Positions 3,001 to 27,000 are shown, counted from the first letter of the stretch. The stretch is DNA of 64,000 bases from Candidatus Omnitrophota bacterium (GCA_023248155.1 JAHFFE010000004.1:68248-132247); one strand, 5' to 3'. The notes: generated by a model not told the origin, from the letters alone. A program made the numbers and translations.

Positions 3001-6000
3001 CGGCAAGTTTTACCGGGTCGAAATTTCCGGCACTGCCGTGACGCTGGTCTCCGGCAGTGAAAGCATCACTACGGCCGTGGATGAAGTGATTGAGAAGAAC
3101 GGCGTGTATTACCGCCTGCTGCAAGATGCCGCCGGCGAACTGGCCTTGGCGCGGGAACCGTCCGTCTACGCGTTCCGCGATCCTGCGTTTGAATTCGGCG
3201 CGAGCCGGGCGCTAGACCGTCCTGTTGTTTACGTGCGCGGCCGTTATCTGGAAATCGATCGGGCACCGGACGGCCGCTGGCGCTTTAGCGATGCGGTTGG
3301 CGAATTCCTGTCCAATAGCGAAAAAACCGAAGTTCTGATCATCGACAAGCTTTTCAAAATCCAGGGCGCTCAGGCCGGCGAATTGTCCCTTGAAGAAGTC
3401 CACGCCGAAAGCCTGAAAACGGTGGATTTGGTGATCAATCTAACGGGGGAAGACTACAAGGTCCAGCGTGAAGGCAGCCAGTGGCGTTTTATCCTCGCGA
3501 CGAATGCGGCCGTGAGTTATCTCTCCGTCGACGGTGTGGTCACGATTCAAGACAGACCCTACGCCTTGCGCTGGGATGATCAGCTTCAAGAGTTAGTTGC
3601 GGGCAATCACCCTGTTATTTCCAGTGATCTGGCCGGCCAGTCGGTGGTGCTCGACGGAGTGCTCTATACGATTCGCATGGATACGGCCGATTCGATCAGC
3701 CTGCTGGGTGAAGGTCCGGATGCGCTCGCGGGCGGGACTGTCCCCGGAAACCTTACGCTGGCAGGGGCGGTTTATGCGGTCGAAAAACTCATCGACGGCC
3801 GTTATGTTTTCTCCGGTCAGGTGCAGAGCCGGCCGGCGGAAGAACCCATCCGGTTGTTTGACGGCAAGTTTTACAGCGTGGCGCATGACGGCGAGTATTT
3901 TACGCTCAGCCAAGGCGGAAAGAATTATTCCAATCGTCCGCGTTTAGCGAATTTGCCGGAAGTCGCATCGACCGGTGATTTAACCGCGTTTGAATACTTG
4001 AAAGACGGTACGGTGCGGCCGGAGATCAGCGATGTCTATGACTCTCAATCCGGCACGCTGACGTCCGGCGTTTTTACGGTTCCGGGGGATCAAAACTATA
4101 CGTGGACCTGGGAAATGGCCGCGGGCGGCGAGAGCGGTACCCTGAAAATTCTCAATGCATCCGGAACCGCTGCCCTGCAAGAAACCATCAGTGAATCCAT
4201 GATGTCGATGCCGGGCGGCTGGACTTTAAATTTTCTCAACCCGTTTATTTCGGGCAAGCATGCCGGCTATAAAGTCAGCTACAACACCGGAACGAATACG
4301 CTTACTCTCACGCCCGCCGGCATCACCGGCAATTTTACCGCGCCGGATGGAACGGCTTATCTTTGGGGCCTGACGCGGCATGAGCGCAAAGACTCCGGAG
4401 GGCAGCCGGATACGCTCAATGACGGTTATGTTTTCCGCCTGAGTCAAGCCGGCGGGACGGGCCTTTATGAAAAAACCGGTATCGTTGCGAAGTCTCAAGA
4501 ACTGAATGCGGATTTCACGGGTCTTGTTCAAATGGCCGGCTCGGGCTGGATGGTGCATCTGGATGAAAACAGCGGCAAACTGCGTTTTGATCCCAAGCAT
4601 TCGAGCGGGAGTTTCATTTCGGCTGTGGACGATGAGCGCTACATCTGGTCGATCGATTGGACCCAGACCGGAGAATTTATGAAGGGGTGGACCTTTACGC
4701 TGGAGGATGAGGCCGGCGTCAATACGTTTACGCGTTCCGGTACGCTGAACAGTGATCCGACTTTGGCGATGCCTGAGACGTTTCCACAGCCGTTTGAGGG
4801 TGTTTACGCGCTCGCGAATGCCGTGGAATATCAAATCAGCTTTGATCCGCAGACGAACCGTATGACCCTGGCGCCGCAGCGCGTGCTGGTGGAAGAAAGT
4901 TCTGACCGGATTTTGATTGACGGGCGCTGGTTTGCGATCAGCGGGACGGATACCGGCAGTCTTGTGCTGACGAATGAAATTTTGGAAGAGGCCGGTCAAT
5001 ACCGTTTAGCCGGCGAGCGTTATGCCCAGCAGGTTGAAACGAGCATGAACGAGATGGGTTTCCCCGGGCCGCAGGTGCTGGTGCTGACGGATGAAAACGG
5101 CCGGCGCTTTGAAAGCGTTTTGAATACCACATCCGCCGCGACCGGCCAATACGGGTATAACGCCTATGGTTACTGGGGGCCGATGTATCAATACACCCAT
5201 ACGTACACGGTCACGATCAAAAACATGACGTTTGAAGTGCGCCTGCCGCCCTATGATCCCTACGACTCCAATCCGCCGCCGCTTGAAAATTATACGCTCG
5301 TGCCGTATCAGGCCGCGGCCGTAACGGCGGTTGTGCCGGCGGGGACGCTGGTGAAAATCGGCGGCGCAATTTATGCGATTACCCCCAAGCCGGGCGTTGA
5401 AAATGTCTACCTGATTAGCGACGGCCAAACGCTGACGGAAGCTGGGCTTGGCGAGCCGGTGCGTTTGAATGGCATCGAATACGTCATCCGCCGCGCGCCT
5501 TCCGGAGCGCTCAGTATGATCCAGCAGGTGCAAACGCTGTCCGGGCACCAGGTGATTTTGGAAGGTGTCCGGTATTCGGTCGAAGAGCAGACGGGCCGGG
5601 TCATTCTCTCCGATGGTGTTCAGTCGTTTGAGTCCGATGACGCCAAAGCGAAGATTACGGTCAAAGACCGCCTTTATGATCTTGTGCGCACGGAAGCCGG
5701 CGCCCTGGTGCTGGTCGAATCCGGCGTGGTCCGCTCGTACCAAACCCTGGTTTTCCAAAATAAAACCTACGATGTCCTGCGCAATAGCGACGGTTCGATT
5801 TCGCTGCTCTATCACAAGGCAACGCATGGCACGTTGGCGCCAAAAGAATCCGTCCAGATGCCTGCGCAATTGCGCTATAAAGGCGGAAATTACACCGTGA
5901 GCACGCTGGAAGACGGCCGGCTTCAGATCGAAGGTCCCGAAGGTGTTTCCACCAGCGCGGCGGAAACGGGCCTGATTGATTTTGACGGGAAACTCTGGCA

Positions 6001-9000
6001 GGCCGTGCGGCTTGCGGACGGCCGCTGGACGATTGAGGGAACATTCGAAAGCGCTCCGGCCTCCGGCCAACCGCTGTTTTTTGACGGAAAGATTTACACG
6101 CTTGCCATGCAAGCCAATCAATTCGTGCTTTCCGACGGACGCGCTCACTATACGGCGGATGTCTCGGGTTTTGTGAATTTGAACGGCCGCACGTTCTTCT
6201 GGAGCGGGACCGGGCTGGAGGATTTCCAGATGTTCAACCGGCCGTATCTTGGCAGAACCGATACGGAAATCCAGCTTGAAGGTTTGAACCTGGCCTATCA
6301 GATTGAATATTCCATGATGACGGGCCCGGTCCTTAAAATCACGGATTCTGAACGCAATGCGGTTTATACCAGCTTTACGGATCAAACCAGGGCCTTCATG
6401 GATATCCGGGGCGTTCGCTACGAGATTACGGGCAGCTTGTATGACAGCTTCGGCGAGGGGTTTGGCCTGCGGCCGGCCGCCGGAAACGTGCCGGCTTCTG
6501 CGCCCGCCGAGGAAGGAACCCGGCTTGTGGTGGAAAACCGCATTCTCAGCGTAAGCCTCAAAGCGGGCACCGGCGATATCTATCTGGCGTCCGACGGTAC
6601 GGAGACGCTGGAAGTCCGGCTCGGTGAGACGCTCAACGTCAACGGCCTTCCTTATATGCTTAGTCTGCCAGCCTCCGGCGAACTCAAATTCAGCCTGAGC
6701 AGCCGCCAGATCAGTCTGGCGCAGTTGGGGCTGGATTCGACGTCCTATCTGGCTTTTGAAACCGCGGCCGGCGAATGGGCCTTCCAGGGAACTTACGATC
6801 CCACGGGTGAATTGAGCACAAGCACGGGCGGCGGCACGCTGGTCCAAATCGGCGATCTGAAATATCACATCGAACGCCTCCCTGACGGCGGCCTCAAACT
6901 GACCGAAACCGAAGACAGCGCGCCGGTGGTTTATGAAGATCAACTCTTCCGCAGCGACTTGCAGGCCCGCACGATCCGCATTTCCGGCAAGATCTACCGG
7001 CTCGCACTTGCGGCGGACGGGGACTGGGTCTTGAGTGAAGATTACGAAACTTCGCAGGCCCTGCAGCCGGCGGTGGAAATCGGCGGCCGCAAACTGCAGT
7101 ACCGTTTAGAAGACGCGCAGGTGATCTTGACGGACGGGAAAAACAGCTTCCGCAGCAGCCGCGACGGCTCAAACGTGACGATCGACCATCGCCGCTATGC
7201 GATCCAGCGCAGCGGCAGCGCGATTACGCTTTCCGAGCCGTCTCTGCCGTACAGCCAGACGATCGATGCGCTTGGCGCAATTTGGCTGATCCGCCGCGAC
7301 GCGTCCGGAAAAATCATGGCCGACAATCCCGAAACCCAGGAAACGTTTGCCGGCGATACGGCTGGTCTCGTGATTACGATTCGCGGCGTGCAGTTTGATA
7401 TCACGGGCGAGGAAGGCCGGCGGATTTTCACGCCGCGTATTTCAGCCGAACCCACCCTAGCCGACGGCGCTTTCTTGCTGGCCGGCCGGATGTTCTTTTA
7501 CAAGACCGAAGACGGGCAATTGACCGTGACGTATGCGGACAGCGGGGCCGCGGCCGGCGCAGCGGACGAAAATGCCGGACTGATCGAAATCGCCGGTACC
7601 GTTTATCAAGTGCAGCGCACGAGCGGCCGGCTTGAATTCCATAAGCAAGCCTTTGAAGAAGCTCAGGAAATTTCAGGAGCGGTGTTTTACATCAACGGAA
7701 CGATTTATGAGGTTCAGTATGATGAGACTGCCGGGTCTTTCGAAGTACGCAGCGGCCAGAAAACTTACACCAGCGATCCGGCCACGGGGCATATTTTGAT
7801 CGGCGAAATTGCGGCTGAAATCCGCCGCGATACCGCGAGCGGCGAAATTACGATCACGGTGCCCACAGCAGCCAGCGTCAAGCGCGCCGACCAGGCGGTT
7901 GAACTCAAGGGCCAGATTTATTGGCTGACGCGCCTGGAAGCCGGCCGGTACGAAGTTTATGATCCGGCTGCGAAAACGCCGCATGCGTCCCGCCTTGAAC
8001 AAATTGACGGCGTCTGGCTACCGGTGGTGGATCTGGCCGGCAGTGTTTACCGCGTGGTCGAAGACCGCGGTGAACGCATGCGTCTGGAAGAGGTGACAGA
8101 GGAATTTATTTCCGACGACCGCTTCAAGGTGCTGGCCGGCGGTAAGGAATACACGATCGGCCAGGATTCCGTGGATCAACGTTTCTATCTCGATGACGGC
8201 ACGCACCGTTTCTATGAAACCGGGGTGGATGGCATTATCAAGATCGGCGCTGATTCCTTTAGCGTGCGTGAACTGGCCGGCCGGCGCTTGTTTAATCCGG
8301 AGGTGGTCAAGCGCGCCGATCTGGATCAAAACGGCGAATTCAACGCCGAGGATGCGCGCATCTTGACGCGCCTGGCCAGCCACTACAAAGACATCAACGG
8401 CGACGGTCTGGTCGATCAGCAGGATATTGACGCGTTAAATAAAATTATTGATCTCACGCCTGAGATCCGTGATGCGGTGCCGGATGGTCAGATTACATCC
8501 GATGATTTTACTTCGCTTGACGTCAACCATGACCGCAAGATTGATTACCGCGATGCCAACGCGCTCAACCAGGTGGTGCAGAACCGCTTTGACATCAACC
8601 GCGACGGCCTCACCTCGAGCGGCTCCGGCGTTCCGGCGACGGATGACCTGGCATTTTTCAACGCCCTGTTTAGCCAGATCCGCCAGCTGCAGGCTCAGGG
8701 CATTGTGGTCGAGCCGGCCAAACTAAAAGCGCTGGATGTCAACAATGACGGGCTGGTGACGCATGAGGACGTGACGGCGCTTGGAAAAGTGATCGGCAAG
8801 AATTTCGATATCAATGGCGACGGCAAACTCGATGACCTGGCCAATCGCAAGGATGAAAAACGGCTCGACGATGTGATCAGCGCGCTCGCTTTGAAGATCA
8901 AACAGAACGAATTGACGCTGGCCGATGTGAACCGCAACGGCAAGGTCGATGACAAGGACCGCTCCGACCTTTCGGAATCGATCCGCAAGTATACCCAGCT

Positions 9001-12000
9001 CGCGGTTGCCGCGGATTATGACGCCAGCGGCCTTTTTGATTACGGCGACCTCGTAGCCCTGCAGCGGGATGTCGGCGAAATCCGCCGCGGCAGCCTGCTC
9101 AGCCCGCAGCTGCTCTCGCGCGCGGACATCAATAATGACGGGCGCGTGGATGACCGTGACTGGAGAACGCTGGAGCAGGGCCTGGCTTCGCACCGGGATG
9201 TCAATGAAGACGGCCGCATCGACAGCAAAGACAGCGAGGTGCTGGAACGCTATCTGAATTTCACAGCCGGCGAAATTATTCCGGCCCGCGAAATCCGGCT
9301 CGAGACGCCGGAGGGGCTCGAGAGCCAAATTACGGGCAGTCAGTCCATTGTGCTGGATGACGAGCGCTATGTTGTCTCAAAGAACACCGAAGGCGCTTAT
9401 GTGTTGACGTCCCGCGACGAGACGTTTAACGCCTATGGCGGAATCAATATCGTGGAAATCGGTGAGCACATTTACGACATCTACGAAGATCCGGACGGCA
9501 AGATCCGTCTGGTGGATCAGGAAGCGCGCACGCATCAGAGCATGCACCGGGCGGATTTCGTCATCCGGCTGGGTGAGCGGGAATATGACGCTTATTTCAA
9601 AGATTACGGCCGTTTTGAATTTAAATCCGCCGAGTGCTTTGACGGAACCGAAAACTGCGAAACGGCGCTGAGCGGTTTTGACGACAAAGTAACACTGCAA
9701 AATCAGGTGTTTATCGTTGAAACCGACTCGCTGACGCGTCAGGCCGCGCTCAAAGCGGCCTCGATGCGCAGCCTGAAACGCGCGGACCAGGTCATTGAAC
9801 TGGAAGGCAAACGCTACGAAGTGGTCAATCATTTTGACGGCAGCTATACGTTCAAAACGGATGAGTTTGAACAGCGCTCCGACCGCGATCAGAAACGCGT
9901 CAAACTGGACGGAATTTATTATGACATCCACGAAGATCCGCTGACGGGCCATGTGCAGCTGGCTGAACAGCATGCGATCAGCCGGGTGCTGGCTGACCAG
10001 GTCATCCGCATTCAGCGCAAAGATTCGCTTTCCTTGTCCGAAATTTATGCCGGGGCGGATACGCGGGCGCTTTTCCTGGCCAGCCAGGGCGGACAGAAAA
10101 TCGGCAGTCCGGTCGTTTATGACGATTCTTACCTAGTAAATTTCAACCTTGACGGCACGACGACCTTTACGCATGAGAAGACCGGCACGAAATACACAAG
10201 CGGCCGCTCCCAGGAAGACGGCACTTCCGTTGTGACGATTGACCGGATGGCTTTCCGTATTTTCTCCGATTACGAAAACGGCGGGATCTATATCGAGCAG
10301 GATCATGAAAAACTGGGCTCCGATGCGGGCGCCGGTGCGGGCCGCGGCCAAGTCACGTTCTTGAAAGCCGGCGAGCCGGTGACTTACGAATGGATTTATG
10401 ATGATGCGACCGGCAAGCTCAAGATCAACGGTGAATGGGTCAACCCCGAAACCAATACAGCCTTGCTCGACGGCCAGCAATTCCTGATTAATTTTGATCC
10501 GGAAAAAGGCCGCCTGGCCATGGAACAGGCCTACCTGCGCTCAAGCCGCGTGGCCGATCAGCGTTTGATTCTGGAAGACACGTTGTTTAATGTTTCGCAC
10601 AACAAGGACGGCTCTTTCTCGCTCTTTGACGGCGAGACCAGCTTCCGCACCAACCCGGTGTCCCGCAAGGTGACGATCCGCGGCCGGGTTTACGATGTGA
10701 TTGAAAACAGCTACAGCGGATCGATCACGCTGGCCGAAGAGTACAGCCGTGAAAGCAAGCCGGTCTATGATCAGGTCATTGAACTCAACGGCAAAAATTA
10801 TTTTGTGCGTGAAAATACGCAGGATGGCATCACGGAGTTCATCCACGCTGACGAGACGATCCGCTCCACGGCCAGCCGGACCTGGCAGGACGCATCCATT
10901 GATTTTACCAAGGATAAGATGCCGCAGGGCTGGGCGCCGGAGACGGGCAGCTGGCGCATCATGGCCGGCCGCGCCGAATCGCTGGTGCAAGGCCAGCAGG
11001 CCTCGTTTGCCCGCACCGGGCTTGTGACCGAAACTGATTTTACATTGTCGGTCGATCTCTCCTTTGAAATCCTCAGCGATGAACCCGCCGCGCCTGCCGG
11101 CACAGCCGATGAGCGTCTCTGGGAAGGCTCAGTCCTCTTTAATGTGATGGATCGCGATAACGCTTACGCGGCCCGCCTGTTTGAGCGGGGCGGCAGCCGG
11201 TTTGTGGGGTTATACAAGCTGGTTCACGGGATTGAGTATCCGCTGGCCTTGGAGCGCGAACTGCCGTTTGAGTTCAGCACGGAGACGGATTACCGCATGC
11301 AGATCCGTGTGGAGTCCGGCAAAATCACGCTGGCCATGAATGATCAGCCTCTGCTGGAGGCCCAGGACCATTATTTCACCGGCGGCGCCGTGGCGCTCGC
11401 TGGCAAGGGCCGCGATGTTCAGTTTGACAACATCGTTCTGCATCACGCGCACGAACTGGATCAGCCGCGGCAAGTCACGATAGATGACCATCTTTACACG
11501 ATTTCACGGCGTGATTTTACCGAGACGTATGATCTGGATATCAACCGGGACGAGGCGTTCAGTCAAGGCGACAGCGGCGCCCTGCTGGAAGCTTTGCTCA
11601 GTAACGGGCTTGTCAGCGAAGAAGACTTGGCTCGTTACCGCGCGCAGGGCGGAACCGCGGGATTGGGCGCTAGCGGCGGCGAGGGCGAGGGATCGTTTGC
11701 GGGCGGAGAGAGTGCCGGAGGGGGCGCAGGCATGCCGGCCGGCGGGGAAACTGGCGCAGGTTCAGGCACGTCCTATCAGGTTTCGGAAGACGAAGGCGTG
11801 GATTTGAGCGGCCTGCATGTCAGCATTCCGGGCCGCCTGCCGCGTTCGACCGTGGACATTACCGGCGACGGCCGCGGTGATATTGCGGACATCAAACGTA
11901 TCCAAGAAATTCTGTTTGCCGTGCGCCGCGGTGAAATTGTCCAGCCGCGTGATTACGAGAAGGCGGATGTTACCGGGGATGGAAAAGTTACGGATGCCGA

Positions 12001-15000
12001 CTGGAAAGCGATTGAAACCGCGCGGCTCAAAGCGGCGCGCAGTGACGTGACCCAAGATGGCGTTACGGATTACCGCGATGTTGAAGCGATCCGCCACATT
12101 GACCGCGAAGAAGTCATCCGGGCCACGGCGTCTGAAATCGCGAAAGCGGACCTGAACCACAACGGCGCGCTGGACGCTGCGGATGTGGCGCAGCTTGAGC
12201 AGACCATGAAGCATATGCATGAGCTGGATCTTGATTTCGACGGCAAGATTGTTTTGGCGGACGAACTGGCGGCTTTTGACAAAGCCAAAGAATTTTACGA
12301 TCTGGGCTTGAGCCTGAGCGCCGAACAGTTTGCGCGGGCGGATATCGATCAGGACGGTTTGATCACGCCGGCGGATCTGCGCATTTATGAAAAACTGACC
12401 CAGCAGTGGGATGCTGCCGGCACGCCGCGCAATGTTTTTGATCTGACCAACGACGGCGTGGTGGATGGCAGCGATGAGCAGCGCATGGTTGATCTTTTGA
12501 TGGCCGAGGGCCTCAAAATCACTGAAGAAGAAAAAGTCCTCGGCGATATCAACCGCGACGGCATAACGGACAGCCGTGATTTGGATCTCTATACGCTGAT
12601 TTATCAAAATGAAAACCGGCTGAATATTGATGGGGTGGCGGGCATCAATGCGCAGGATGTTAATAAAGCCGCCTCGATCCGCAGCTGGCTGGCCGCGCGT
12701 AATGCGCCGGTGCGCGGGCTGACTCGGTTGAAAGATCTTCAAGATGCGGGCGTGGACACCGCCAATCCGGATGCGGTTGCCGCGCATCTCAACCAGCTGA
12801 TTTCAACCACGCAGGCCAAGATTGCCGACGTCAACGGCGATGGTCTGATCGATGAAAAAGATTTGGCCCGCGCCCGCGAAGTCGAGGAAATCGTCAGTTA
12901 CGGTATGGACCGCGGCTTTGCGCTGGACATGCGTTTCGATCTTAACCAGGACGGCAAAGTCGATGACAGTGATCTGGCGGCGCTGATGACCGCCATTTCC
13001 AACCAGATTGTGCATGATGTGAATGCGGACGGCGCGGTCAACCAGACGGATGTGGATCTTTTTGACCGCATGATCCGCTATCAACGCACGGGCTATACGG
13101 TGATGCCGGATGATCTGGAGAATGCCGACATTGACCATAGCGGCGCTTTTGATGCGGGCGATGTGACGAATTTCACAAACGCGCTGCCATTCTACCGCGA
13201 TGTGACCGGCGATAAACGCCTGGATAGTGCGGATCTGCTCGCGGTCCGTAAAGCCAAGGCCTTGCAGGAAGCCGGTTACACGGACCGCTCCTCCGGCGAG
13301 CCGGTTTACCGGCCGCTGACGCTGGATCTGCTGCGCCGTGCGGATCTGACCCGCGATAACGTGATCGACAGCGCGGATAGCGCTTTTCTGGCGCAGGCCA
13401 TTCAAGGCAATCTGGATCTGACCGGTGATTTTGCCGTGACGATCGAGGACCAGCTGCGGCTCGGCCAGTATTCGCCGTGGGGGCTGGGCGTGAAGCAAGT
13501 CGAACGTGCAGACATTGATCAGGACAATCTTATCGGCGCGCGTGATTATGCCGGCCTGCTGGCGGCGCTCGGCGGCATTGACCGCGCGGATGTCACCGGT
13601 GACGGCAAGGTCGATGCCAATGATCTCAAAGATTTACGCCGGCTGGTCGAAGCGGCCAAGCTGAAAGTGACCGGCCGCGATGTGGTGCTGGCGGATGTGA
13701 CCCGGGACCGCAAGGTCGATGTGGCGGACGTGACGAAAGTCATTGAAAGCGTACGGGCTTTGCAGGCCTTTGACATCACCGGCGACCGCATGGTCAATGC
13801 GCTGGATGAACAGGCGCTTTTCTTCCTGTGGGGCGTCGAGCCGCTGGATCTGTTAAACCAAAGCGAAGCCGCTTTGGCTGAGCTGGAAGCGCGTGCGGCC
13901 GCTGCGGTCGACGCCGGGGAAGCCCGCGCCATCGAACGCGCGGCCCAAGGTATTTTTAATCAGGCCCTGACCATGGAAGAAACCGGCAAAGCGATTGCGC
14001 GCATGCTGCTCAGCCCCAGCGAATCGCAACAGATGCTGCAGGAAATTGCGCAGATCATGGCGCGTCTTTCCGGACACCGCAGCGCCATCCAAGCCGTGCT
14101 CGCTGCGCTCACCGGACAAGCAGCGCTGGCCCCCAGCCTCGCAAGCCAGCTGGAAGATGCCCTCAAAGTCCTCAAAGAAACTTTGGTTGAAGCGCGCGCG
14201 GCTGAAAGTTCGGATGCGGTGGATTCATTGGTGCTTTCGGTCGAGCCCGTGATTCAAAATATGCGTACACTGGCCGGGACGCAGGGACAGGTCCAGCCAG
14301 GAACTCAGCCGGACCTGTCCCTGGCTGCCTATCTGGATCAGGGCGAGGCTGTTTTTGCTGAACTCTCCGCGTTGGCGCAGTCCGTGCGGCAGGCGGAAGA
14401 GACGATGGCAGGCCTTGCCGAACAAACCCGCAATGCGCTGGCGCTGGCGGATTGGATGAGCCGGCAGTTTGAAGCCGGGGCAGATACCAGCCCTGCTTTT
14501 GTGTCGCTGCTGGCTTTTGGCCGGAATGCCCTTGCCGAGTCGCAGCGTGCGGCCCAGGCTGCGCGCGCCCGGGCGTCGGGTCTTCTGGCACAGATGCCGG
14601 CGAATACCGCGGCCCTGCAGGCCCAGGAAACTTTGCGGGGCGCCCAGAGCCGTTTGGATCAAGCGCTGGAAACCCTCACGCAAAGTTTGCATGAGGCCCA
14701 GGCTGCCGAGAACGGTGCCATGCCTCTGGTGAAGGAAGCTCAGAGCAAACTCGACCACATGCGGATTTTGGCGGCGCAGTCCGTGACCACGGCCCTCGCA
14801 GGCACGGCCGCAGCGCTCGTGACCCAGCTGGCCCGGTCCAATCTCGGCCGCGAACCGACACCGGATGAAATCAGAGCCGCCGTGGCGGGCCTCGCGGCAG
14901 GAGAAACACTGGAACAGACGGCGGGCCGCTTGCTGGCAATTTCCGATGCGGCCCTGATCAAAGCCGCGCTGGATCCGCTGCGGGATAAAACCTCCCTGGA

Positions 15001-18000
15001 TGAAAGTGCTCTGGGCGCGCGCTACCAGGCCATGACCGCAGGCCTCTGGCCATTGGAAAGTGCGACTCAGTCCGTGATGAATTATTTTGGACCGGCCATG
15101 GATTGGCCGGCCGAATTGGCACGCTTGCAGCGGGGGGCCGACGAAATTCTCGCAGATTTAGAGGCGGCTCTCGCTGAAATGGACCGCTTGCTTTATTTGA
15201 ATCCCGGCCATGCGGAACTGAACGCCAATGCTCTGCTCATGACCGATGTTCTGAATCAGGCGGCCGGCCTGGCTGAAGACCTGCGGGAATTCCCGCAGGT
15301 GCTGACGCCGGAAATCGAAAATTTCAACCTTGCCAAAGCCACGGCCGAAGCCAGCCTCGCGTCTGACGAAAATCTGCAGGTCCATCTGGCCGCTGCCGAG
15401 CTTTTGACCGGACGCATCGACGCCATGACTGAAACTGCGGATAGGGCGCAAGCGCTCCGCTGGCTGGAAACTTTTGAAACCACGGCCGCCGGTCCTGTGC
15501 CTCAGCAGATCAACGCACTTGTGGCGGCCGCCAGAACCAAAGTGGAGAGCGCGCAGCAGGTGGAGGCCGGCATCCGTCTGCTTGAAGCTGCGGCCGAACA
15601 AACAGACGCAACCGCCGAATTTATCCGCGCGCAAGCCGGCACGATGAACCGTGAAATGCTGATCGGCGTCGTGGATCAGCTTCTGGGGCAGTTGGAGGCG
15701 GCCGCGGCACAGGCTTCAGGCGTGATCAGTCAGTATCCGGACACGGCGGCGTTCAGCCGTTTGAGCGGCCGTCCGGAAGCGCTGATGGCCCAGATTAAAG
15801 CCGCTCACGAAGCCATGCTGGCTGAATTATTCCATGAGCGGGTGGTCACAAATCGCGGGGCCGATTCCGTTGAAACCGCCGCGCTTTTGGCCGGTGCTGT
15901 GAACCGGTTGGGCGCAATCGCTGCGGACAATGGAGTGGCAATTCATGAATTGCCACTACGGATGCTTTATACGCTGATAAATAACACACGATCCAAAGTC
16001 GCTGTGCTGGAAAGTGAACTGGCTACGGCCGTCAATGCCGGCGTGGATGCCGGGGCTAATTTGGCCTCAATTCGCGACTACCTGGCCCGTATTGACCAAA
16101 CTGCGGCGGCCTTGAACGCCCGCGCTGCGGCTTTGGGCGCGGATGTGAATGCGCCGCTGACGGCGGCTGACAAGAATACCGCTTTAATTTCGATTCTCAG
16201 CGGACTTGAAACGCAATCCCAGGCTGCGAATGCGACGGCCTTGACCCTCAAACAAATCCAGCAGGCTGTGCGCGAGATCCAGGGACAAGTCCAGTTAGCC
16301 GCTCAAGTGCCGGGGACTCAGGGAGAGGTCCAGTTAGCGGCTCAGATGGACCTGTCCCTGCTCACGGTTAAAAATGCACTGCTGCGTGCCACCGGCGGCG
16401 CGTCTCTGGTGGAAGAAACGGTTTATCTGGCCGCGGCCGGGCGCTTGTCGCTGGTGCTTGCCAACAACACGAATGATTTGACCTTATTGAACCGGCTCGA
16501 AGTCTTTGCCGGTGATTTTGCGGTTCAAGCCGCCGCGGCCCGCGCAAAATTGGCTCAGCTTGCTGCCGCAGACAGCACGGGCGTCTATGGCTTCAGCGCC
16601 AATCTGCCTTCACTCGCCGCGCTCGAAGCCGATACCGGCAAAACCAAGGCGCTTGTGACCGAAAGACTGGCGCATTTGGCCGGACAGCCGCAGGCTTGGT
16701 CCACGGATCCGCTGGTGCGCGCGCTGCATGAAGCCGAAGCCCTGCAAAAAGCCATCATGGTCCAACAGGGACAGGTCCAAACAACTCAACAGGACCTGTC
16801 CCTTAAGACTTCGCTCGCGATCCTGGAAGCGATTGGGGAGGCCGTGACCAGCACGATCGCGGCTTTGACGGAATCCGCCCGTCAGGATGCGGCCGCTTTT
16901 GAAGACCGCCAGCGGCTGCTTGAGAATTACCGCGGTCGTTTTGATTTCTCCGAACAAGCCGCTCTGCTTCAAAGTGAAGAAACCATAGCGGCGGCGGAGC
17001 AGGCGCGTGCAGCCGAGCAAGCCGCATTCGAGCGTCACCTCGCCCTGCTGCAGGACCTTGAAACCCAGGATGAAACCCTGGCCCGGGCTTTGGCGGATAT
17101 GGCGATTGACGATGCTCAAGAATTGCGCGATTTGGGCGCTGAGCCGGATCTTGCGATCGTGGAACGCCTGGAAATGCAGGCTGAATCCGCGGAAGCGCGG
17201 CAGGATTCCGGAGCGCAGATTGAAGAACTGGCCGAGGGCCTCGCCGCCTGGATCGAACGGCTGGAGACCATGACGGCCGGTCTGAATACCAACGAGGAGT
17301 TGGCGGTGCGTGAAGGCTTGCTTGATCTGGCGGATGCCGTTACGGCGCATTGGCAGGAACTGCTGACCGAGCCGTCTGCGGCCGAGGTGCGCCAAAAAGT
17401 CGATGCGCTGCGCAGCGTTGTGACGCAAGACCTGCAGGCGCTTGAGACCACAAAAGGGGCTGCGGATGCGGCCGCCGATTGGCTGAAAGAAAACGGCGCG
17501 CATCTGACCGAACTGGACCGTCTGATTGGCGAGGCCATGGCCGCATTTGAGACTGCTGCGAAGACCACCGGTGTAGGGGCGGGTTCTAAAACCGCCCAGG
17601 ATGCCGCTGCTTCCGCGCGCCGGCTCTATGAAGAACTCGAAACGCTTCAGGATGAATTTATCGCGCTTACAGCCGAAGTCGAAAATGCCTCAGCCTATGA
17701 AGACGACATCAAGGCCATGATGACCGCGCGTGAGGAGTTCCGCGCGGAACTGGACGGCCTGGCGGAAACACAAATCCTGACGCAGATCCAAACCTCGCAG
17801 GGCGCGGATGTCACCCAACTCCTGAATACGATTGAAGCGCAGATGACGGCCAATCTCAATGCCCTGCGCAATCTGGACCCCGAAGAATTCAAAAAATCCA
17901 CGGCCGAACTTTTGGCGGGTCATCCGGAATTGGGCGGCCTCAAACTCGAACTGCCGGATGCCGGAGCCCTGGATGAAAACTCTCAGCCCGACCTCTTGCG

Positions 18001-21000: not shown

Positions 21001-24000
21001 CGCTCAGGTCTATACCGCCGTCGAGATGCGCCGCAAGGCTCAGGCGTCCAATGATCTGGAACTGCTGATGACGCTTGCCGAGGATGCCCGCAACCGGCGC
21101 AAACAGGCGCAGAAAATTTATAAGTCTATGCTCACGCTGCTTGCAAAAGCCCTGACCGGCGACTTCAAAAATCTCGACAAGGTGCTGCCGGCGTTCAAAA
21201 AACGCGTGACGGCGGCTAAAGAGCTTTTAAACCGGCTGGCCGATGAATGGGCGCTGATTGACGCGGCGCGCATGGAATTGGCGGCCAAGGCGGACCGGGG
21301 CGCGCTCCTCGCCGGAGAAATCACCTCCCTGGCGAGTCAGGCGGCAAAATTGCGCGCTGAAATTCTGGGCCGCGAAGAGGCGGCCGGCGAACCTTCGGGC
21401 GCGGCGGCTTTAAAAGATATTCCGCTTGAGAAAATGGCCAAACTGCTCGGAATCACGGAGGAGGAAGCGGAAAAGGTCGTGGATGTGCTTTCGAATAAAA
21501 CGCTCACGCACCAGAATTCAGCCGCCGTCCTGCAGTCCATGGAGGCAGTGCGCAAAATGTTCGACAGCGGCAAACTACGCCTCGAACGTTTGACGGCGCT
21601 GATTGAAGTGCCCTATGCCGACATTGCCGGCGGAGTCCAGAAGACGGCCGCGGCGATTAACGCCATCATCGACAAGCCGGCCGCAGCCCAGGCAGCGGCG
21701 GATATTTTAGCGCAATTCGGCACGGGCATTTCCGCGGTTCCGGGAAGCGATGCGGCTATTTTAGCAGCCCTGGTGCTGGGCCTGTTGGCCGCCAGCGTGG
21801 AAGAGCCCGCAGCTTCCGCAGCTCTGAAAGCCATAATCCGCGAAGCGGCGGCCAAGGCGGCAGCGGAAGCGGAAATGCTCGGAGGCACCAGCGTCAGTCT
21901 GTCCGCGGCGGCCGCATCCGCCCAGGGTTCAGCGGCGATGGCCACGCGCATTGTGAACCAAATTCAAACCGAAAGCGGTACGGCGAGCGGCAGCGTGACA
22001 ACCGCGGCCGCGTTAGCGGTGCTGGCTGCGGCATATTCCGCTCACACGGCACAGCCGGCGTATTCCGAAACCACGGCGTCTGTGCTAGCCTCGAATATCA
22101 ATGCGTTTACGGCTTACCGGGCATACCTTGAACCGCTGCCTCTCGTGTCGCGGGCCGATGCGGCGGCGACAACAGCGCTCATTGCCGACGGACTCGCGGC
22201 CGGAAGCGACGTCAGCGCGGAGGCCGTCCGCGCGGCGGAAAAAGCTTCGGGCCTGGCGCTCATGCTGACGTCGCTGATGTCGCAGGATCGCGGTATTCCG
22301 GGTTATGCGCCTCAGGCGGCTGCGTCGTCTGCGGCCCTGTCGCTGGCGGCACTGTCCCATGCGATTGTAACATCGGGAGTCACCGGTGCGATTCGCAGTG
22401 CTGCGCTTAATGCAGCGGCCAGCGCCCGGGATTTGGCCGCGCAGGTTGCGGGAATTTCATCGCCGGCTCAGGGTGCCCAGGCGGCACGTGATGCTCAGGC
22501 CATTTCCGCAAATCTTGTCCAGATGTTTGCGGAAAATGAGTTAGCTATGCCGGCGGCCATGCAGAACTTTGTGACGGCAATTGCCGTTGCGGCAGAACTG
22601 GCCGGCGGAGCGGCCGCCGGAACGTTGAATCTGCCGGAGGCCGTCTCTATGGCCTCGGGCCTTGCGGTGACCTTTCTCCGCAATAGTCAAAGCTACCTGC
22701 TTACTGCAAGAACGCGCGAGCAGACGGCGGCGCTGACGGCTCAACTTTCAACCGCTTCATCCTGGAGCTCATCCGCACCGCAGGAAGTCGCCGGCTCGAT
22801 CCATGGATTAGGCGTATCACTTACAGCCGGACAGGCTGCTTCCGATGCGCAGGTCATGGATGCGGTGGTAGCTGCGACGGCTGCTTTTAATCTTTTTGCG
22901 AATGCGATTACGACCGATTTTAACATTCCAGAGGAGATTCGAACTGCGGCGCGGCAGAAAGCTCAGAACCTCGTTTTTTACGCGCAGCACCTGGCGCCGG
23001 CCACGACCGTGGATTGGGCGGTGGCTGAGGCGCTCACCCTGATGCAGAATGATCTTTCGGATCTGCAGGGAATGTTCCTTGCGGCTGGAATTGGGATGCC
23101 TCCGCGGGTATCGGCAGCTATGAATGCGGCGGCCGCGGCGCGGATGCTCAGCAGTTCGCTGGTTCAATCTACGCCGGTATCGATTTCGACACAGGCGTTG
23201 ACGCAGAGTTTGACGACGGCGCTGCTGATACTTCCAAGCACGGCTGCGCCCCAGCCCTTGGAGCAAGGCGCAGCTTCTCAGGGCGCGCTGGCGCTCCAAG
23301 CAGCGAGCCGTCTTGCCGTAAGTCTGACGGCCGAGGCGGATATTACCCGGCTGGGCGATACCAGCGCCTTGAATTCCTCAGCTCTTGCCGCAGGCCTTGC
23401 CGCCGCGGCGTCCGCCGGATCCGCCATGCCGCAAGGCTTGACGTCTCAGGCGGCGCAAATGGCGGCGACCGCCTTGTCCATGATTGCGGCCGCGGCCATG
23501 ATTCCGCAGTCAACGGACGATTTGAAGCAGCAGGCCGCTCTCGCCGCCGCCCAGGCCCAGACGCTCGTCGAAAGATCGGGATCCTCGGAGGCGGTCAGTG
23601 CCGCAGAAATCAAGGAAGTTTCGCTTGCGGCGGCGCAGTTAGCCGATACCGTGAAAGCCTTCATGACTTCGCTCAATCTGACGGTACCGGCCAAAATTGA
23701 CCAGATGACGAATGCGGCTCAGCAAGCGGCCGCACTGGCGGGTGCGATTGAAAAGGGCCGTTCGGGCGCTTCGATCGTCCAGGCTTTTGGAGTCAGCGGC
23801 GCGGGCGTGATTCAATATGCGCTCCACAGCCCCGAAGGCAAGGCTGTTTATGAAGCTTATCGCGATGTGCTAGGCCGTGATCCCAAGGGCGAAGAACTGG
23901 CCGTGGATTTGGCCGACGTGCTGGCCGGCAAACTGACGACCGCCGATTTGAAAGTGCGCCTGCTCGGTTCTGAAGAGTACCGCCAGACCCGTGCCTTGAT

Positions 24001-27000
24001 GGAACGCGTCATTCTGTCGGTGGGTGCGGTGCTTGAAAATTATACGGGCTTAAAACGCAGCGAACAGATCATATTCGCTGCCGGCTTTGGTATTCCCGCT
24101 TCCATGGCGGCCTCACTGAATAAAGATTCTGCCACAGCTATTCTTAAATACCTGTCGGAACAAAGCCTGCACTTCGGCATCAGCGCCTTCACGGCTCTCA
24201 GCTTCATGCTCTCTCAAGACTCACGACTCAAGACTCTCGACTACGAAGAACTCGCGCGCCAGACGATTCTCTCCGACATTCTCTCCGGCGTGCTGCGTGC
24301 CGATACGCGCGGCGAACTGGTCCTCTCGGCTTTTGCGCTTCAAAATACGGCGGCGCACGCGGGGCTCGAACTTTACGGCCGGCGCATGACGGCCGAGGAA
24401 TTGCCGGCGCTTAAATTGCCGGCCATTATTCACCTGGACGGCGATCATTTTGCCGTGCTTGAAAAGGCCGACGCTGAAAACGTGACCGTGCGTGAATATA
24501 CGGGCGATTCTTTTGCGCTGAGCGTGGCGGAATTTGTGAAACATTGGGACGGCTTCGTGATGAGCGCCGATCAACCGGACCGCCGCACGCTTGACAGCGC
24601 GAGCCTGCAGCTCATCCGCGGTTCGGATGCGGCGCTGGGATCAAGCCCTGCCGATATTGCGGCATTGTCCGTCCAGCTTGGCAATTTGTTTGCCGCCATG
24701 GCTTCCGGTTCCGTGGATGCGACGCTGGCTCAGGCCGCCTTGGCCGCGGCAGGGGATTTGGTTTCCGTGCTGGCCATTTTTGAAGAATTAAGCGCCAAGG
24801 GCGCTTATCTCAAGAGTGCCGAAAATCTGGAAGAGCGCCTGCGCCAGCAGTCGCTGGCCTTCTTTGAGGAAATCGACCGGCTGGACCTGACCGTGCGCCG
24901 CGCTTCGCGTGTGTCGCAAGGCAAAGCTTTTATGGATCAGATCACCGCGCGCAACAAGGACATCCAGAATTTGCTCATTATTGCCCAGTCTACGGCTATG
25001 CAGTATCCTTCGAACTCGGCGATTGCCGCGGATCTTGCCGAAGTACAGACCATCGCGGCCCAGGCGGCGAACAAAGCCGCGCAGACCGCGATTTATCTGA
25101 ATGAATTGACGGCCGCCGAAGCCAATGCGGCCTCGCTGGCGTCCGCCATGCGCCAGGATCTTGCGCTCATGCAATCCCTGAACCTGCGCGCGCTGGCCAG
25201 CCGCAGCAGCGCGGAAGTGGCGTCGATTTTCTCGCAGGCGGATGAGATGGAAGACCAGATGCGCTTGCTGCGTGAAGACATCAACGACGTCTACGATGCC
25301 TTTCTCAGCAGTCAAGCCATTCTGGACCGTGCCACGGAAGCCAACGAACTGCTGCTGGAAGCGGCGCGCATCCTGGCCGAGTTGACCGTGCGCGCGCGTG
25401 CCGTGGCCCGTTATAACCAGATGAGCCCGCTGCTGTTGGACCGCGCGGATGTCAACCGCGACGGCAGCGTGACTGCCGCTGACGTGACAGCGCTCAATCT
25501 GGCCATGGCCACGGTGGATGACATCAATCTCGACGGCGTGGTCGACCTGCTCGATAAGGCCATCTGGCAGCAGCTCCTGCCGCTGATTCCGACGCTGGAT
25601 TTCCTGAATGGAACCTTAGCCGGGCTGGGCGATGTGGATGCGGACAGCCAGCTTGACAGCGACGACGTCTCCTTGTTCCGTTCGTACTTGTCGGCTTACG
25701 TCAACGTGGATCAAGACCCAGCCGGGCTGGTGGATTCGAGCGATGTCCTGGCCGTGAGCAATTATGTGAATTCAGGCTACACCTTCAAATACGGCACGCC
25801 GGACACCGTGACGCTGTACCGCTACTTCGGTGAAACCCAGCCCAAAGTCGTGCACGTGGCCGATCCGAACCAGACCATCTATGTCAATTCGATCTTTGAT
25901 GTACTCGATTCCACGAGCAATGAGACATTGGATGCCCTGACGGATGTGGAGTTTCCTGAGAATCAGGGCTTTTATGCCGGCCAGATGCAGGGAATTGAGC
26001 GCTCAGCACTGGCTTCCGATGATGAAAGCGCCGTGGCGCTCTTGGCCAGCCGCGCCCGCGACTTACTGGATCAGGCGCTCTTGGGCCGCGATCTTTTGAC
26101 CCTCATCAATACGCCCGCCAGCCGTCAAGTGGCACAGACTGCGGATGGAACGCTTGAAACTTTGGCTGATCTTTACACGGCCCTGCAGGATTGGACCAAG
26201 TTTGCCGCTCAAAAAGAAGACGTCGTGCGTTTGGATCGCGAAGCGCTCGTCAGTGCGGAAGCGGCGTTGGCCCAAGCGCGTGCCGCATTGGCCGGGCTTG
26301 TCGCTCAAGTCAATGCCGGCACGCTTTCATCGGCGGATCCTGCCTTCGCCGCGGCGCTGGCCAATGTCAGTGCCAGGGAAAGCGCATACACAGCGGCAAA
26401 AAACACCTTGAGCGCATCGGCGCAGGACTCCGGCCGCGTGCGGCGCGAGAAAATCCTGCTGGACTATCTCTACAAGTCGGCCAAGAACGATTTGGAATCC
26501 CTGCGGCGCTCGTACGAAAAAATTCGCGCTCAAGCCGAGGCGTTGCGTTACAAGAGTTACGCGGCCGTTACAAGTTCGTTTGTCCGCTATCTTGGAGATG
26601 CCGCCTATGCCGCGGGGCAAAAACTTGACCCCAATAAACCGGAGGACAAACCGCTGATCCGCGCGCTTCAGGAAGTCCAGGCCTTCCAGTACCGTCTGGC
26701 GGAAACAACCGGCAATGATTTGATGGACTTGTATAACGGCCTTAGCTTTGCGCGTGACAATGGGTGGGAAACCGGTCTTCAGCCGCCGGCGGACCCGATG
26801 CCTTTGACGATGGGCGCCTGGAATGATGATACCAACCCGCTGCAATTGATTGACTTTGATCATTCCAGCGCCCGGGAATTCCGCGCGAACGTCGACCGGC
26901 TCAAAATTATTTTCGAGCATTGGGGCGAACCGCTGCCTGGAACCGGCACGGGTGGTCTTGACCTAATGCTTGATGCCAGCCAGGTTACGTTCATCGAGCA

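Follow-up and report, generated by a model that had tools for sequence, protein, structure and literature searches.

Palindromic hairpins inside a giant gene of an Omnitrophota bacterium, probable in-frame copies of a REP/REPIN-type element

Introduction

Why should one short palindrome occur three times, always in the same frame, inside a single protein-coding sequence? The question is raised by a 64,000-nt stretch of DNA from a Candidatus Omnitrophota bacterium (GCA_023248155.1 JAHFFE010000004.1:68248-132247), referred to here at its full length as the window. A first-pass annotation had marked in it a hairpin-forming element, hereafter S, between positions 14282 and 16803, and had offered three candidate explanations: an mRNA hairpin acting in pausing or stability, a palindromic insertion tolerated in frame and similar to repetitive extragenic palindromes (REPs) or miniature transposable elements with inverted repeats (MITEs), and a recombination site that lets its spacer expand or contract. 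The second of these is favored by the analysis described below. Each of the three S hairpins is probably one copy of a REP/REPIN-type element that is short, palindromic and non-autonomous, REPINs being doublets of inverted REP units oriented by the center of the palindrome (PMC3337134), and P2, a second palindrome family with a copy among them, would be a second such element, both carried as passenger selfish DNA. This reading is supported by the nucleotide identity of the copies, their multi-copy and mostly intergenic distribution in related genomes, the variety of frames in which they are read, their presence as in-frame inserts in enzymes and the bracketing of Y1 transposase genes by the same units.

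The S Hairpins of the Window

The whole window is spanned by a single stop-free frame on the + strand (2 to 64000; 21,333 codons from nt 2), which is open at both ends, so that the giant gene must reach beyond the window. This, as well as a fourth palindrome at 15934-15957 (P2, see below), had been overlooked in the first-pass annotation, whose positions and peptides for S stand apart from the details given here.

Copy 1 (14282-14323, 42 nt in total) pairs the arms CAGGGACAGGTCC and GGACCTGTCCCTG at 13 of 13 positions around a loop of 16 nt, exactly as annotated. Copy 2 (16280-16360, 81 nt) has outer arms at 16280-16292 (CAGGGACAAGTCC, one mismatch) and 16348-16360, which form a 12/13 stem around a 55-nt loop; these dimensions hold, and the supposed 21-nt direct repeat of the loop is really a 39-nt tandem duplication (16268-16305 vs 16307-16344, 79% identical). 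Copy 2 is thus a composite: its 42-nt segment 16319-16360 (copy 2b; 5' arm CAGGGAGAGGTCC) corresponds to copy 1, with 53 nt alignable at 79% identity, and 16280-16318 repeats the 5' part of 16319-16360 as a tandem duplicate of 39 nt. About 11 nt on the 5' side of the hairpin (TGGCCGGGACG) are common to copies 1 and 2b, and an inner stem, AGCCGCT/AGCGGCT, is present within the loop of copy 2. In copy 3 the length of 39 nt and the 13-nt loop were correctly described; the arms (16767-16778 and 16792-16803) form a perfect 12/12 stem and the 13th pair, C16766 / T16804, is mismatched, so that the element extends from 16766 to 16804 and does not end at 16803.

Each copy starts on a codon boundary of the giant frame and is read as QGQVQ...DLSL, in agreement with the earlier description, the complete peptides being QGQVQPGTQPDLSL (copy 1), QGQVQLAAQVPGTQGEVQLAAQMDLSL (copy 2) and QGQVQTTQQDLSL (copy 3). 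The hairpins are located where Pro/Gly-containing breaks interrupt a region that is helical for the rest and rich in Ala and Leu. The underlying S unit is a quasi-palindrome of about 12-14 nt, AGGGAC-AG-GTCC(C/A), and the S hairpin consists of two inverted units (AGGGAC-AG-GTCC(C) and GGGAC-CT-GTCCCT) around a variable spacer, the non-palindromic center of the unit (AG or CT) marking its orientation.

These structures exceed what chance would produce. With up to two mismatches allowed, the 13-mer arm was found nine times against 1.14 expected, a count that none of 100 shuffles reached, and the abundance of unpaired arms that would betray a simple effect of local codon bias was not seen, the sole extra matches being two with two mismatches, at the chance level. 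Four perfect stems of 12 nt or more, with loops between 0 and 60 nt, were counted in the window, compared with 0.35 +/- 0.61 (maximum 3) in 200 synonymous-codon shuffles that kept the protein and the codon usage. Local folding was beyond dinucleotide-shuffled controls in all three copies, with z scores for copies 1, 2 and 3 of -3.6, -3.0 and -5.8 as RNA and of -4.0, -3.7 and -6.0 as DNA; the fold energies of the S hairpins were -27 to -45 kcal/mol (RNA) and -13 to -21 kcal/mol (DNA).

A perfect 12-nt inverted repeat elsewhere in the window (22205-22216 / 22264-22275, AGCGACGTCAGC / GCTGACGTCGCT, 47 nt apart) was considered as a further element and rejected, since none of the fetched loci contained a relative of it and chance could account for it.

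Distribution of S in Other Genomes

An exact search for the pattern AGGGACAGGTCC-N5-35-GGACCTGTCCCT, restricted to a single genome for each species, found at least 120 loci against ~0.1 expected by our own estimate. The Omnitrophota metagenome-assembled genome (MAG) nzgw332 (JAHFHF01) holds at least 21 copies, in 17/21 of which a C precedes the 12-nt arm and reproduces the 13-nt arm of the window. Several to many copies per genome were also found in at least six further Omnitrophota MAGs, in MAGs of Cloacimonadota, Lachnospiraceae, Acidobacteriota, Thermotogaceae and Eggerthella (one each), in cultured Fredinandcohnia and in other Bacillaceae; in Bacillaceae, Lachnospiraceae and Acidobacteriota the S units carry nested, taxon-specific flanks. 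The S and P2 segments were the only parts of the window that matched the 1.75 Mb of DNA fetched for comparison (loci designated L with a number).

Among the fetched loci S is mostly intergenic. In nzgw332, 13 of the 21 copies occupy short spacers between genes, most of them within 50 nt of a gene end, two are placed at the extreme 3' end of an open reading frame (ORF) and six are inside ORFs. Five of these six are in giant ORFs, their frames showing no interruption over the full length of the fetched piece (8 kb in four cases). Within this genome a subclass with 32-nt loops was noticed (L007 4899-4954, L082 2445-2500, L092 29-84 and L113 4063-4118), with related loop ends (..GTAAC...GTT(A/C)GGA, in either orientation), an AT-rich center and a right end that forms, together with the arm, an AGGAGG-like sequence.

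Other sources of the element were also considered. Neither S nor P2 was present in 2.9 million viral contigs, and carriage by phages is therefore not supported. Clustering of the ORFs near the elements revealed no recurrent neighbor except a small Y1 family beside P2. Rfam gave no match at the gathering score in 20 loci, and for the window hairpins it returned chance-level miRNA-like matches only (E 3.6-9.5). The searchable literature did not contain the S or P2 core sequence, the matches being unrelated primers or none, and the papers on Omnitrophota giant genes do not mention palindromes, hairpins or REPs.

In-frame Insertions in Coding Sequences

Where S lies within an ORF it is read in at least three frame combinations. 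The reading QGQV..DLSL is found in the window and at one GatB site (L015), GTGP..DLSL in nzgw332, where giant ORFs (L034, L036, L064, L070 and L118) carry hairpins of 35 nt, and GTGP..GPVP in GatA, GatB, NadE, DnaX, ValRS and a DAO-type oxidoreductase. In no real ORF was S found in a frame giving RDRS or a peptide with Cys, a pattern that would be expected from selection for harmless peptides.

In GatA and GatB these sequences are clean in-frame insertions. The GatA of MAG CAYZYT01, aligned to solved structures, shows a surplus of 24 residues (TGPGS...GPVPK) at the very position of a 75-nt S hairpin. This insert separates the conserved segments PCGF and LPIGMQL, which are contiguous in Aquifex GatA, and the same site carries a 39-nt S hairpin in a second MAG. 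Two S hairpins in the GatB of CAYZYT01 correspond to gaps of 11 and 8 residues in the homolog. In nzgw332, NadE has two S-like hairpins in variable loops, and a third palindrome family (AGAAGGTGCCAGGCACCC...) forms a clean 16-residue in-frame insert in the same protein relative to PDB 3n05 and 4f4h. One S hairpin is located in the linker of DnaX. The third palindrome family of nzgw332 (AGGTGCCAGGCACCC) does not occur in the window; in that genome it was seen at L113 4255-4300 and L036 3773-3812 (AGAAGGTGCCAGGCACCC ... GGGAGCCAGGCACC).

The first-pass annotation had held that conservation is at the level of nucleotides and that the copies are not a protein repeat, a view borne out by the intergenic copies, by the use of other frames in other ORFs and by the surroundings of the window copies. 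The flanks of the latter were compared with the S-coded peptide masked and with composition-corrected scoring, random pairs from the same helical region serving as reference; they scored 17-20 bits, against a random median of 15 and a 99th percentile of 21.7, which places the three copies in unrelated contexts. Membership of a duplicated protein module, suggested by a flank similarity of 27-29%, was rejected because this similarity, due to composition plus the motif itself, vanished with masking and composition-based statistics.

These data bear directly on an alternative in which QGQVQ-x-DLSL is a short motif maintained in the protein and the complementarity of the arms is a coincidence of codon choice, since codons of the pairs Q/L, G/S and V/D are reverse complements. 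Coding sequence is indeed able to yield the S palindrome by coincidence: in seven Microvirga/Proteobacteria loci (L035, L050, L065, L073, L097, L109 and L112) a 12+12 palindrome derives from a conserved glutathione-S-transferase motif, NPKGQVPVLVDGDLSL, in single-copy orthologous genes of Microvirga and a related MAG, and these loci were accordingly set aside as coding coincidences. The use of one frame by all three window copies would also fit a protein motif. Against it, the probability of complementary arms, given the peptides and the codon usage of the gene, is 3.9e-4 per copy, and every window copy of S uses GGA, which makes up only 13% of the Gly codons of the gene. Moreover, in other ORFs S is translated as GTGP..DLSL or GTGP..GPVP, and in relatives it is mostly intergenic, the flanks are non-homologous, and no diverged copy of the QGQVQ..DLSL peptide was found elsewhere in the 21,333 residues. 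This alternative is already largely refuted and is considered highly improbable.

A second alternative assumes that the giant gene benefits from the palindromes as selected mRNA (or DNA) structures, which would pause ribosomes between folding units or shield the very long transcript from decay, and that they were co-opted from, or converged on, a genomic hairpin family. A stability far beyond that of shuffled controls and the location in Pro/Gly-containing breaks of the helical region would agree with such a role, and extragenic REPs are known to influence mRNA stability and expression (PMC3337134). Nevertheless, S also resides in GatA, GatB, NadE, DnaX, ValRS and intergenic spacers, and is hence not specific to giant genes; three copies per 64 kb, all within 2.5 kb, do not make a periodic pausing pattern; and no Rfam family was matched. 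In addition, degenerate copies display 10 one-sided changes versus 1 both-sided change, that is, no compensatory maintenance, and copy 2 of the window is already mismatched. This one-sided decay argues against selection for an RNA helix and leaves the mRNA hairpin proposed in the first-pass annotation without support, so that a selected structure is regarded as unlikely.

Association With Y1 Transposases

Leads to a mobilizing enzyme were obtained with two queries, an Escherichia coli REP-associated tyrosine transposase (RAYT) and the TnpA of IS608, and matches were then verified by Pfam. The ORFs adjoining S in L114 (Acidobacteriota) and L116 (Fredinandcohnia) were identified as PF01797 (Y1_Tnp) proteins with the HUH and Tyr motifs. 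Although these two proteins share only ~28-30% identity, both genes are bracketed by S units in the same manner, with a doublet upstream and a single unit directly after the stop codon.

The L114 protein belongs to a very large family, as the 7,990 best-scoring of 8,000 candidates tested were all homologs at E <= 1e-10. Only a few homologs of this S-associated clade are labeled with a taxon, which in every case falls within Planctomycetota (Planctomycetes/Planctomycetota, Phycisphaerae, Phycisphaerales, Schlesneria). Four of the homologs were fetched (L241, L243, L245 and L246, from Schlesneria, Phycisphaerae and two unclassified contigs; 54-56% identical to the L114 protein), and all four are bracketed by inverted S-type units that lie no more than ~70 nt from the ORF ends. 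The flanks read AAAGGGGACAGGTCC ... GGACATGTCCCTTTT in L245 and AAAGGGGACAGGTCC ... GGACCTGTCCCCTTT in L246, with the unit pattern GGGGACAGGTCC / GGAC(A/C)TGTCCC(T/C). Those of L241 and L243 have co-varied, reading AAAGGGGATAAGT(C/T)C ... G(G/A)ACTTATCCCCTTT around the core GGGGATAAGT(C/T)C / G(G/A)ACTTATCCCC. Each of the L241-L246 genes examined makes up, with its two inverted S-type ends, a compact unit of ~0.8 kb.

S-type bracketing was therefore present in 6/6 of the Y1 genes examined (L114, L116, L241, L243, L245 and L246), which belong to Acidobacteriota, Bacillota and Planctomycetota. Inverted units arranged around Y1 genes are the signature of the REP/REPIN–RAYT system.

P2, a Second Palindrome Family

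P2 is situated between S copies 1 and 2 of the window (15934-15957) and consists of a perfect 12+12 palindrome without loop, AGTGGCAATTCA followed by TGAATTGCCACT, the whole being GTGGCAATTCATGAATTGCCAC / AGTGGCAATTCATGAATTGCCACT; its in-frame reading is (G)VAIHELPL. An exact scan with the P2 22-mer retrieved at least 120 metagenome contigs, in which P2 is nearly all intergenic and nearly always extended to GTAG...CTAC, CTAC being present in the window on the 3' side only. One metagenome contig (L138) carries the Rfam motif Acido-Lenti-1 (RF01687, 53.7 bits) at 3358-3403, ~60 nt from a P2 palindrome, possibly another dispersed hairpin family of the same genomes.

In nzgw332 exact copies of P2 occur in L034 (three), L082 and L118, and a one-mismatch copy in L070. 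The copies of L034, L070 and L118 are inside giant ORFs of this Omnitrophota MAG and, except for L070, are identical in nucleotide sequence to that of the window; one L034 copy is extended to a perfect palindrome of 48 bp.

Like S, P2 is associated with Y1 genes. It was found within 50 nt of the ends of genes of another Y1_Tnp clade (L177, L179, L205 and L153), and P2-type palindromes are also present inside these Y1 genes, between the HUH and Tyr motifs (L205 316-337 and L153 899-920, as well as L179 and L177). The internal palindromes are translated as VGAIHELPLQ and remain palindromic through changes that are double and symmetric (GGGGCAATTCATGAATTGCCCC).

Proposed Mechanism and Alternatives

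A mechanism can be proposed in which a Y1 (HUH) enzyme of the RAYT/IS200 superfamily, supplied in trans, would recognize the folded single-stranded hairpin and copy or move it around the chromosome, most copies landing in intergenic spacers. A copy entering coding sequence would survive only if the frame is kept, no stop is added and the peptide is harmless; the tolerated peptides, QGQVQ..DLSL, GTGP..DLSL and GTGP..GPVP, are rich in Gly, Gln, Thr, Pro, Ser and Leu. A giant, largely helical protein under low constraint would offer a large and tolerant target, in which S would be translated as short loop insertions and the mRNA hairpin would be a by-product. We infer that a RAYT is present in the source organism and mobilized these copies.

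Several observations weigh against a REP/REPIN-type origin. The fetched Omnitrophota loci, which are 8-kb pieces, did not contain a Y1 transposase. For the source organism the data consist of the 64-kb window, whose four S/P2 copies are all intragenic. Searches of proteins and metagenomes yielded no ortholog or strain variant, and hence no empty site or presence/absence polymorphism at the three S positions. The loops are very unequal among copies, which is unusual for copy-and-paste elements, and the S unit lacks the 5' GTAG of REPs, its arms being preceded by C or by variable bases. No target-site duplication is visible, as would be expected for Y1 enzymes: a direct duplication is absent from the flanks of the three copies (GACG|..|GCTG, GATC|..|CTCA and CCAA|..|TAAG). 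Finally, the three S copies of the window are in one frame and clustered within 2.5 kb, and copies 1 and 2b have in common the ~11 nt beyond the hairpin; copying on the spot or gene conversion may thus have produced them, instead of three separate transposition events.

Carried further, this last point leads to an origin without any transposase, in which a quasi-palindrome perfected by template switching during replication would have multiplied within the gene through slippage, gene conversion or duplication of segments and its hairpins would now be hot spots of recombination or expansion. Together with the clustering, the common frame and the shared upstream nucleotides, the 39-nt tandem duplication starting from the 5' arm of copy 2 is what hairpin-promoted slippage would give. 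However, identical arms of 13-14 nt recur in unrelated genes, in spacers and in other genomes, the unrelated P2 from the same foreign repertoire sits among the S copies, and the same units bracket Y1-transposase genes; the non-homologous flanks also mean that segmental duplication is not visible. A purely local origin is thus quite unlikely. As to the recombination or expansion site proposed in the first-pass annotation, the tandem duplication at copy 2 suggests hairpin-promoted slippage and is the sole hint of local expansion by the elements.

The interpretation of S and P2 as REP/REPIN-type elements is accordingly preferred, even though two features, the strong variation of the loops and the occurrence of one identical 12-nt core in different phyla, do not follow from the standard REPIN model. 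A more ambitious scenario is doubtful at present: in Omnitrophota and allied uncultured lineages, REP-type hairpins of at least two RAYT clades would routinely colonize coding sequences, those of essential enzymes and giant genes alike, the 12-nt core being kept in Bacillota, Planctomycetota and Omnitrophota by a conserved, horizontally spreading or very ancient RAYT clade, and the hairpins of giant genes would be more than passengers, acting as substrates of slippage and recombination that add linkers and help giant ORFs to grow or reshuffle.

The Host Gene

The window has a GC content of 56%. Pfam domains on the + strand of the host gene include ILEI (~1799-2038), Dockerin_1 (~8384-8572 and elsewhere) and EF-hand_7 (~12821-12988), all within the first 5,000 residues of the giant protein, as well as a Peptidase_C39-like domain near residue 8,100 (~24323-24571). 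The region 12000-13800 contains a dockerin/EF-hand-like array of 5-7 calcium-binding repeats at irregular spacing, with the DNA motif GAT(C/G)TGAC..GACGGC..GT(C/G)GA. As judged from its predicted domains, this architecture matches the "Dockerin-type" giant proteins of Omnitrophota, in which EF-hand/dockerin repeats are accompanied by an ILEI-like domain and, in one instance, by C39 domains (bioRxiv 10.1101/2023.11.21.568195). Both the architecture and the DNA elements in common with Omnitrophota MAGs point to this phylum.

The proteins encoded by 13802-17401 and 23402-26701 (~1,100-1,200 residues each) had no homolog at E <= 1e-5 among 5.8 billion proteins, a metagenome scan with the protein of 14003-17002 detected no relative, and the complete window protein, run with tblastn on 120 loci, had no match, with a positive control that worked.

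Comparison With Known Systems

The elements described here can be compared with four kinds of mobile or repetitive DNA. REPs are, by their name, extragenic. According to what Nunvar reportedly described in 2010, RAYTs are the transposases associated with REPs, and a conserved 5' GTAG tetranucleotide is found next to the REP palindrome. The REP/REPIN–RAYT system has been described in several studies (PMC3116915, PMC3337134, PMC5581495), and S resembles it in being a short hairpin-forming palindrome (stems of 12-13 bp, z of -3.0 to -6.0), in having many copies per genome, mostly in short spacers (in nzgw332 and other relatives, the window copies being intragenic), and in forming a doublet of inverted units whose orientation is given by the unit center (PMC3337134, PMC5581495). 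As with REPs and RAYTs, S units bracket a PF01797 Y1 (HUH) gene in other phyla, and their flanks co-vary between transposase homologs. P2 is closer still in its GTAG/CTAC head and in its long perfect palindromes, which recall the "palindromic REP singlets" of Pseudomonas fluorescens SBW25. Unlike REPs, the S copies of the window lie within a gene and are translated, as are others in essential enzymes of related MAGs; unlike REPINs, S has a hypervariable spacer (loops of 7 to >55 nt); and, whereas REP families are lineage-specific, an identical 12-nt S core is present in several phyla. If this truly reflects a conserved RAYT specificity, it bears on the origin and spread of the REPIN-RAYT system.

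The in-frame behavior of S has its counterpart in the Rickettsia palindromic elements (RPEs), which reportedly go back to Ogata et al. in 2000. To our knowledge, in-frame palindromic selfish DNA in protein-coding genes is known essentially from Rickettsia. RPEs are palindromic repeats found in frame in many unrelated genes, including those of housekeeping enzymes, with the peptide at tolerated surface or linker sites, and they occur in intergenic regions as well (PMC10969869). Similarly, S is inserted in frame in unrelated genes (GatA, with 24 amino acids, GatB, twice, NadE, DnaX, ValRS, the DAO oxidoreductase and giant ORFs). It differs from RPEs, which are ~100-150 bp long with one conserved peptide per family and no linked transposase, in its length of 33-81 nt, its three or more frame combinations and the bracketing of Y1 genes by S and P2 units; its host lineage is probably Omnitrophota and there is no known sequence relationship.

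MITEs such as ERIC, BOX and Correia/NEMIS are non-autonomous, have inverted-repeat ends, can be co-transcribed and are occasionally fused in frame to ORFs (PMC10969869). S is like a MITE in that it resembles the two ends of a transposase-carrying unit joined with little between them, and unlike one in that it shows no target-site duplication, is much shorter and has as partner a single-strand-specific Y1 HUH enzyme instead of a DDE transposase. With the IS200/IS605 family it has in common the PF01797 superfamily, hairpins recognized as single-stranded DNA and the lack of target duplication, but the IS200/IS605 hairpins are subterminal, differ between left and right, are not inverted copies of each other and are not dispersed alone by dozens.

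In the present case a hairpin of the REP/REPIN type is translated as part of a giant gene, as well as of GatA, GatB, NadE, DnaX and ValRS in related genomes. This provides an independent system, the second of its kind, in which the absorption of random peptide insertions by proteins can be studied, a route to testing the seeding of coding sequence by RAYT-type enzymes, and a DNA-level marker common to lineages whose giant proteins have no detectable homologs; from a practical point of view, such hairpins can mislead repeat scans, RNA-structure scans and the assembly of giant genes. Altogether, the nearest known kinds are the REP/REPIN-RAYT system, as regards the element and its likely mobilization, and the Rickettsia palindromic elements, as regards its behavior within reading frames.

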